A DNA stretch of 43,949 nt. Origin: Escherichia phage vB_Ec_DUEC01. A program made the translations under genes and the position numbers. A model generated the notes under the pieces. The model worked only from the letters and a program-made list of their open reading frames with translations, did not search any database and was not told the DNA's origin. Position 1 is the first letter of the stretch, and every line of letters begins with the position of its first letter. Positions 17,097 through 17,843 of the stretch are shown here, one piece after another. The stretch is taken from the sequence record PQ799475.1; one strand, 5' to 3'.

Positions 17097-17843
17097 TTAC
17101 TCGCTGCGCACTTTTCCGTTACATAGCTCCGTGAACTCGGCTATTATCTCGCTGTTGGCCACCATCCACTCACTGGCCCCATCAAAGTTGCTTAGCTCCG
17201 CCGATACGTGTGTGCGGTGAAAGTATCGCTCTAACATACGGCAACGAGCACCATTAGCGTCTTGGTATACACTAAGCACATGGAACTCAAATGGAGTGGA
17301 GCGCTCCAGTTGAGCAAGTCGTTGTTTTAACTTGTTAGTAATACCTATTTTAAGGTATTTACCACATGCAGAAAGAAGTCCGTAAATGTACCCTGGTTTG
17401 TTAGAGTCGTAGCCGTGTCTGGCGCACGACGGACAACCATGCCTGTGCACTAAAATATTATTAACCCCTGTAACAAACACCCCGTGGTCATTACATGCGC
17501 GTATCGCTTTGGAGTTTTTGTTTAGGTACGCGCCGCCTTCAAAACCCACGAACGTATATCGAACATCCGCGGATTTTATTTGCTCAATAACGGCATCTGT
17601 ATTCTTGCGGTAGGCAGCCGCCGCGGCTTCTCGACTGCATTTCATACACCCGTGTCCTCCAGAGATGCTACGGGCTATAGCTGAAAATTCACCGTGGGAC
17701 GGGCAAATAAGTCTAATCTTGCTAGTCGAGTCGATGTACTCACTACCGTCATAACTTGCGGATATTGTGTACTTCCCGCCGTGTTTCTTTAAATCTAACT
17801 CGACCATTTTCTTCCGTTCTTCCCAACCAATTTTAACGCTCAT
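17097..17843 (-). CDS. T5orf172 (GIY-YIG-related) domain protein with N-terminal tandem zinc-ribbon repeats
   Basis: C-terminus GYIYGLLSACGKYLKIGITNKLKQRLAQLERSTP...HRTHVSAEL...GASEWM matches the T5orf172/Mug113 pattern; two N-terminal repeats CPSHGEF...GCMKC and CNDHGVF...GCPSC. Confidence 0.65.
   Translation of the reverse strand: MSVKIGWEERKKMVELDLKKHGGKYTISASYDGSEYIDSTSKIRLICPSHGEFSAIARSISGGHGCMKCSREAAAAAYRKNTDAVIEQIKSADVRYTFVGFEGGAYLNKNSKAIRACNDHGVFVTGVNNILVHRHGCPSCARHGYDSNKPGYIYGLLSACGKYLKIGITNKLKQRLAQLERSTPFEFHVLSVYQDANGARCRMLERYFHRTHVSAELSNFDGASEWMVANSEIIAEFTELCNGKVRSE

Follow-up and report, generated by a model that had tools for sequence, protein, structure and literature searches.

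A predicted free-standing homing endonuclease gene of the T5orf172 family inserted precisely between two tail genes of a Kagunavirus

Our analysis of the genome of Escherichia phage vB_Ec_DUEC01 (sequence record PQ799475.1; the whole stretch of 43,949 nucleotides is referred to here as the window) revealed an insert of approximately 905 bp at a stop/start overlap between two tail genes. This cassette very probably constitutes a free-standing homing endonuclease gene (HEG) that belongs to the T5orf172 branch of the GIY-YIG superfamily. The window represents a complete-length Kagunavirus genome (K1G-like, Guernseyvirinae), and the features of the region are as follows.

14783..17071, plus strand: tape-measure gene, left neighbour, 762 aa (TMP_3 match, homologue annotation)
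17055..17071, plus strand: last codons of the tape-measure gene, with synonymous G>T changes at 17059 and 17062 (CCG GGG to CCT GGT) in carriers only
17072..17976, no strand assigned: inserted cassette, about 905 bp, bounded by TAATAAT at 17069-17075 and 17972-17978 (alignment with K1G and K1ind2)
17075..17094, minus strand: GC-rich hairpin with a GAAA loop on the minus strand, directly after the endonuclease stop codon (folding)
17097..17843, minus strand: predicted free-standing homing endonuclease gene, stop codon included (Pfam, PHROG 681, AF2, dN/dS)
17133..17396, minus strand: predicted T5orf172/MUG113 nuclease domain, about aa 150-237, with Y154, K165-I-G-I-T-N170, R175, E205 and E225
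17418..17582, minus strand: zinc repeat 2, about aa 88-142, predicted ligands C117, H120, C137 and C140 (CapR PF21817 match, conservation)
17628..17795, minus strand: zinc repeat 1, about aa 17-72, predicted ligands C47, H50, C66 and C69 (repeat self-alignment, conservation, AF2 beta-hairpin plus helix)
17844..17976, no strand assigned: 133-bp spacer within the insert, upstream of the endonuclease ORF (sequence and promoter scan; functions presumed)
17977..17982, plus strand: 5′ end of the following tail gene, with second codon GGT (Gly) in carriers versus AGC, ACC or ACT (Ser/Thr) at empty sites, the A>G at 17980 being private to carriers
17977..19374, plus strand: gene in the distal-tail position, right neighbour, long 465-aa form (position, homologue annotation)

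The precision of the insertion became apparent from junctions that lack the cassette. In all 18 empty junctions (K1G, K1ind2 and 16 Kagunavirus contigs from IMG/VR), the stop codon of the tape-measure gene overlaps the start codon of the next gene (TAATG) without any spacer, and the sequence reads ...GCGCCGGGGTTYAARTAATGA(GC/CC/CT)GA... in each of them. The filled site reads ...GCGCCTGGTTTCAAGTAA-TAAT[insert]TAATA-ATGGGTGAC in all three genomes with the cassette, namely, the window, phage vB_EcoS_fFiEco02 and one IMG/VR contig (L015). A fourth carrier, the metagenomic contig PPYF01422004.1 (L026), harbours a 91%-identical variant at the same junction within a more diverged backbone, and the breakpoints were identical when the 18 empty junctions were compared with the three filled ones and this variant. 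The initial annotation of this DNA had proposed a mobile or selfish insertion resembling a homing endonuclease, and the uninterrupted junctions of K1G, K1ind2 and the 16 contigs bore this out.

The cassette is distributed sporadically. Using an exact conserved 26-mer from the 3′ end of the tape-measure gene, located 32-57 nt left of the junction, we retrieved 17 Kagunavirus contigs from IMG/VR, of which 16 were empty and one (L015) was filled. The insert DNA was present in a single phage, deposited as two records, among 118 matching Kagunavirus phage records. A search of IMG/VR and the JGI metagenomes for the 248-aa gene at 90% identity or more yielded no copy at any other genomic site, as every match lay at the junction. 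Judging from match spans, no third type of insertion occurred at the junction among the 60 records listed of 400 in the phage collection; the larger spans in this set represented either a long form of the downstream gene or the HNH cassette described below. A literature search found no paper on a T5orf172 cassette in Kagunaviruses, and both FE2_028 of fFiEco02, annotated as a 'hypothetical protein', and the window ORF can now be named as predicted homing endonucleases of the T5orf172 family.

The 248-aa ORF, which starts with ATG, was found exactly where the initial annotation had placed it, on the strand opposite to both neighbouring genes. These neighbours had been named tape measure and distal tail. 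The former name stood by virtue of the homologues of the 762-aa protein, which carry the tape measure annotation, while its match to Pfam TMP_3 reached 38.8 bits, slightly below the 41-bit cutoff. The 465-aa protein matched PHROG 384 'virion structural protein' with its N-terminus and had no match in Pfam; therefore, the label 'distal tail' rests on position and on the annotation of one homologue, that of phage fEg-Eco19, as a distal tail protein (PMC9038960).

The gene that follows the tape measure encodes 166 aa in K1G, fFiEco02 and L026, and 465 aa in the window and K1ind2. The extra C-terminal part of the long form (residues 128-463) corresponds to PHROG 11600, where it has no assigned function, and the endonuclease cassette is present with both forms. 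Elsewhere in the window, the head/tail structural block contains a 113-aa ORF (7863-8204, plus strand) with an immunoglobulin-like domain (Ig_2, 1.5e-7). The overlapping 187-aa ORF on the minus strand (7809-8372) matched no family and probably does not represent a gene.

The presence/absence data bear directly on the question of whether the 248-aa gene is a regular, conserved component of the tail module, that is, a structural or assembly gene that happens to lie on the other strand. Nothing but its position between tail genes speaks for this explanation. The gene is absent at 18 of the 21 examined junctions and from 116 of the 118 matching phage records, all of which represent viable isolates, and its domains are of DNA-binding and DNA-cleaving types. 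We consider this explanation extremely improbable, and a conserved tail-module gene is refuted by the presence/absence data.

The domain composition of the 248-aa protein agrees with a homing endonuclease. A T5orf172 pattern had been noticed by eye in its C-terminal half, and the HMM search returned both MUG113 (PF13455; 35.3 bits against a cutoff of 22.3) and T5orf172 (PF10544, GIY-YIG clan; 27.5 bits against a cutoff of 20) in this half. PHROG 681 'endonuclease' matched the protein at 3.8e-49 and homologues were found in 800 phage records, often with several per genome, which places the domain assignment far beyond chance. One homologue of 40% identity is likewise encoded antisense inside a structural module. 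The AF2 model had a mean pLDDT of 91.8, and the protein displays the alpha/beta fold of GIY-YIG nucleases. Within the window, tblastn revealed no second copy of the gene.

The two N-terminal zinc-ribbon repeats reported previously could be aligned with each other, each carrying the motif C-x2-H...C-x2-C. In an alignment of 27 homologues, C47, C66, C69, C117, C137 and C140 were invariant, as was P138 in repeat 2, and H50 and H120 were nearly so. Residues 95-141 in repeat 2 matched the CapR homology domain (PF21817) with 28.2 bits against a cutoff of 24.2. The DUF4379 and DUF723 matches on the protein were weaker and below their Pfam cutoffs; all three families are annotated on its homologues. 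Repeat 1 is predicted to form the first DNA-binding module. Two homologues with 57-59% identity (P0002 and P0003) contain three such repeats rather than two.

The second check named in the initial annotation, on catalytic residues of the GIY-YIG type, also supported it, as these were kept. Across the 27 homologues, K165, G167, I168, N170, E205, G222 and E225 were invariant and Y154 nearly invariant, and the spacing Y154-(11)-K165-(10)-R175 equals that of I-TevI, Y6-(11)-Y17-(10)-R27. In a profile alignment to Odn of phage ICP1 (Gp88, sequence taken from NC_015157; hhalign E value of 3.7e-4), E205 aligned with Odn E180, and an E180A change in Odn abolishes DNA cleavage both in vitro and in vivo (PMC8263062). 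E205 also stood opposite E75 of I-TevI, although this hhalign comparison of the 27-homologue alignment with the single I-TevI sequence (verified against 1mk0/1ln0) was not significant (probability of 0.8%) and serves as a consistency check only. A profile search of PDB sequences with the same alignment yielded a chance match only. Hence the first Tyr (Y154), the Arg of the first helix (R175) and a Glu equivalent to I-TevI E75 (E205) are all in place.

Other canonical features are lacking. The Pfam GIY-YIG model (PF01541) scored 13.9 bits against a cutoff of 22.6 and covered residues 151-178 only, the second Tyr of 'YIG' is replaced by K165, and neither His nor Tyr is found four residues after R175 in the first helix. 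For these reasons, we filed the protein under the T5orf172 branch and not under canonical GIY-YIG; the Lys in place of the second Tyr and a first helix without His or Tyr are typical of T5orf172 proteins. As far as the catalytic residues of this branch are known, the 248-aa protein retains them. Between the 248-aa gene and its L026 variant, dN/dS was 0.056 at a dS of 0.74, revealing strong purifying selection by which the protein has been kept functional.

The comparison of the carriers pointed to mobility. The cassettes of the three carriers shared 99.0-99.4% identity, with 0-1 mismatches per 60 bp, whereas their flanks were 79-93% identical, with 2-37 mismatches per 60 bp, and were no nearer to each other than to cassette-free genomes. 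The carriers differ even in the downstream gene, which encodes 166 aa in fFiEco02 and 465 aa in the window. As in homing elements, the cassette was far more alike between carriers than the surrounding genome, indicating that it has moved recently by lateral spread.

We also compared 150 nt on each side of the junction between the 18 empty and 3 filled alleles. Alleles fixed in the carriers and never seen at empty sites occurred at 3 of the 300 flank positions, namely, -13, -10 and +4 from the junction (17059, 17062 and 17980, respectively), with the left-flank statistic being partly biased because the IMG/VR loci were retrieved with the exact 26-mer, which fixes positions -57 to -32. At both 17059 and 17062, G was present in 18 of 18 empty sites and T in 3 of 3 filled ones, and the stretch 17055..17071 is a candidate for a co-converted or cleavage-resistant half-site of the target. 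The three private substitutions could represent donor sequence brought along by recombination rather than protection from self-cleavage. To the left of the 905-bp heterology the carriers share a tract of 13 nt or more, and to its right one of 4-11 nt.

Could the cassette be an inactive passenger, a once-mobile HEG that lost cleavage and has since moved by ordinary homologous recombination in conserved flanks? Kagunavirus genomes are indeed mosaic, with identities that vary by segment, and recombination could make use of two highly conserved stretches, namely, the final 60 nt of the tape-measure gene and the initial 30 nt of the gene after it. However, such short shared tracts would hardly arise unless the DNA is broken at the site, the ORFs are intact in all four copies, every catalytic and zinc-ligand residue is retained, and the low dN/dS extends over a dS of 0.74. 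We therefore regard an inactive passenger as very unlikely.

A separate observation concerns the 3′ end of the tape-measure gene, where positions 17028-17044, 25-45 bp left of the insertion point, contain a 9-bp repeat in tandem, GCAAGGCC-C-GCAAGGCC (codons K-A-R-K-A). Its second copy is altered in L026, and both copies are recoded in fEg-Eco19. The two copies may serve as binding sites for the two zinc modules.

A hairpin terminator, initially located at 17076-17093, was recovered by folding at 17075-17094 with the sequence TATGGCCC-TTTC-GGGCCATA. On the minus strand, the fold has a free energy of -22.4 kcal/mol (z of -5.7; none of 200 shuffles was as good) and is followed by UUAUUACUUG, a U-rich tail; no T-run follows the hairpin on the plus strand. 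The hairpin is likely to serve as the terminator of the antisense endonuclease gene, halting antisense transcription before it enters the tape-measure gene. It is absent from all empty sites and is thus part of the insert.

At the other end, the spacer upstream of the ORF, estimated at about 130 bp in the initial annotation, measured 133 bp. The promoter scan found a minus-strand promoter-like site, TTGCCA-17-TAGCAT, at 17902..17874 that matches 9 of 12 positions, the number of such sites in the region being within 2 sd of shuffles. The equivalent place of the L026 cassette contains a stronger site, TTGACA-17-TAGTAT. A strong Shine-Dalgarno sequence, GGAGGAG, precedes the endonuclease ATG at 17854-17860, and a new one, GAGG, is located at 17965-17968, 8 nt before the ATG of the next tail gene. 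Judged by these signals, the cassette looks self-sufficient. The insert also contains a plus-strand site at 17896-17925, TTGGCA-18-TATGCT, directed toward the downstream tail gene, which is promoter-like by consensus match only (9 of 12 positions) and could compensate for polarity of the insertion.

We infer the following mechanism, including that DNA is cut, which target is recognised, when the gene is expressed and what its promoter and terminator do. The gene would be transcribed antisense, probably from its own sigma-70-like promoter, and transcription would be stopped by its own hairpin. The two N-terminal zinc modules would bind specific DNA at the intact junction of Kagunavirus genomes that lack the cassette, or close to it, and the C-terminal T5orf172 domain would cut the bound DNA. 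During mixed infection, the break would be repaired from the cassette-bearing template, so that the cassette and a few flanking nucleotides would be copied into the recipient, the co-conversion tracts presumably being very short (left, 13 nt or more; right, 4-11 nt). The carrier genome would be spared, as we propose, by the interruption of the site and by base changes close to it (17059, 17062 and 17980). Finally, the cassette would provide the downstream tail gene with a new ribosome-binding site in place of the lost translational coupling to the tape-measure gene. That only four carrier genomes are known was counted against homing.

The same junction is occupied by an unrelated element in phage fEg-Eco19 (L023, NC_073314). 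Its positions 3276-4004, equivalent to 17072-17976 of the window, contain an antisense gene for a 216-aa protein that matches PHROG 953 'HNH endonuclease' at 1.6e-64 and carries an AP2 domain, and we consider it a putative HEG. Copies with at least 90% identity occur sporadically in the E. coli phages SHAK7693, XY1, VIPECOTH07 and MirsaeidiM_Esher4, and the span of the match in XY1 agrees with this junction, at which we also place the element in SHAK7693 and VIPECOTH07. The HNH-AP2 element shares with the T5orf172 cassette the insertion point, the antisense orientation and a similar GC hairpin beside the tape-measure stop codon, but the 3′ end of the tape-measure gene and the 5′ end of the next gene are far more recoded in its carriers. 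In fEg-Eco19, the adjacent 70 nt of the tape-measure gene contain many synonymous changes relative to other Kagunaviruses. The T-run of the hairpin lies on the tape-measure strand in L026 (3758-3776) and in the fEg-Eco19 cassette type, and on the endonuclease strand in the window; the two cassette types may differ in their effect on read-through of the tail operon.

Different putative HEGs at one junction are what is expected of a homing hotspot. Moreover, the reading frame of the HNH gene in fEg-Eco19 continues past its stop codon with PRGWRNK, next to which come the hairpin and left junction of the L026 T5orf172 cassette (L023 3276-3325), and the L026 T5orf172 protein ends with ...KPRGWRK* (L026 approximately 3745-3790). 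The PRGWRNK stretch thus looks like a remnant of the 3′ end of a T5orf172 gene, left when one HEG displaced another, which fits the idea of 'HEG turnover' raised previously (PMC10448857). We tentatively propose that this Kagunavirus junction is a contested homing hotspot at which T5orf172 and HNH-AP2 elements replace each other in place. Linked to this proposal, the two zinc modules may read GCAAGGCC(C)GCAAGGCC at 17028-17044, with the nuclease cutting approximately 15-30 bp away near CCGGGG, in a 'bind here, cut there' manner like that of I-TevI with the polarity reversed.

Finally, the gene may encode a domesticated nuclease that is useful to the phage, be it as a weapon that attacks specific sequences in the DNA of co-infecting relatives, satellites or the host, as in the case of ICP1 Odn, or as a regulator like CapR of PLE. 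There are precedents, since Odn combines T5orf172 with a borrowed DNA-binding domain and acts as an anti-satellite nuclease (PMC8263062) and CapR-type zinc fingers function as repressors (PMC10448857); the strong purifying selection and the promoter-like site of the gene itself agree with such a role as well. On the other hand, a generally useful function would be commoner than a gene that is missing from almost all Kagunaviruses, the site is precisely that of another putative HEG in other Kagunaviruses, and near-identity over diverged backbones is a signature of self-propagation. A pure repressor like CapR was set aside, as the nuclease residues are intact. Domestication also overlaps with homing, because cutting the empty site of competitors would be the same biochemical act. 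Taken together, we consider domestication unlikely, and the 'nuclease moron' of the initial annotation is superfluous as a separate idea.

As a probable homing element, the cassette offers a remarkably clean natural experiment for the T5orf172 family, whose targets are almost all undefined: junctions with and without the insert, as well as two diverged versions of the cassette, exist in E. coli phages that are easy to grow, a competing HNH element is found at the site, and the candidate target has been confined to a few tens of bp. The cassette-carrying Kagunaviruses thereby constitute a tractable E. coli phage system for the target and homing of a poorly characterised family. Many Kagunaviruses are candidates for phage therapy, and for the genomics of such phages the junction marks a point of possible exchange of tail-gene modules between co-infecting phages.

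The combination of domains, which the initial annotation had observed and left unassigned, corresponds to a published architecture: 200 of 229 T5orf172 HEGs carry zinc fingers of the CapR, DUF723 or DUF4379 type, often in several repeats like 'beads on a string' (PMC10448857). The cassette therefore represents an already described type and not a new mechanism. Barth, Dunham and Seed (2023) also reported that T5orf172 HEGs cluster beside essential genes (terminase, capsid and ribonucleotide reductase), that HEGs of other classes often interrupt certain genes, tape-measure genes included, and that different classes of HEGs often lie near one another, from which these authors concluded that some loci favour the acquisition or retention of HEGs (PMC10448857).

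The closest likeness is to the type represented by Gp121, Gp165 and Gp174 of ICP1, which have the same order of N-terminal zinc-finger repeats and a C-terminal T5orf172 domain, and are likewise free-standing and located beside essential structural genes, including tape-measure neighbourhoods; a variable number of repeats among close relatives is a further likeness. The hhalign match to Gp121 had a probability of 90% and an E value of 1.4e-6 and extended across both zinc repeats and the nuclease domain at 17% identity. In contrast to the ICP1 HEGs, the window phage belongs to another lineage, a Guernseyvirinae siphovirus of E. coli, with low sequence identity, and its zinc motif is C-x2-H...C-x2-C as opposed to the CxxC...CxC described for CapR (PMC10448857).

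Among T5orf172 proteins, nuclease activity has been demonstrated for Odn alone (PMC8263062). Its residues Y125, K138, R148, E180 and E202 correspond to Y154, K165, R175, E205 and E225 of the window protein, and in neither protein does the first helix carry the canonical His or Tyr. However, Odn possesses a RepA_N DNA-binding domain and no zinc repeats, targets the replication origin of a satellite, and is a defence tool rather than a homing gene.

The free-standing GIY-YIG HEGs of T4 (I-TevI, SegA-G; intronless homing) resemble the window gene in joining a modular nuclease to a DNA-binding domain, in their location between conserved genes, in short co-conversion tracts and in polymorphisms within the target region of the carrier. 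They differ in domain order, the nuclease being N-terminal in I-TevI, in having 'YIG' where the window protein has 'KIG', and in their DNA-binding modules, and the window protein falls below the canonical Pfam GIY-YIG cutoff. Unlike most members of the T5orf172 family, the window element has a candidate target, provided by its alleles with and without the insert and by the precise point of insertion.
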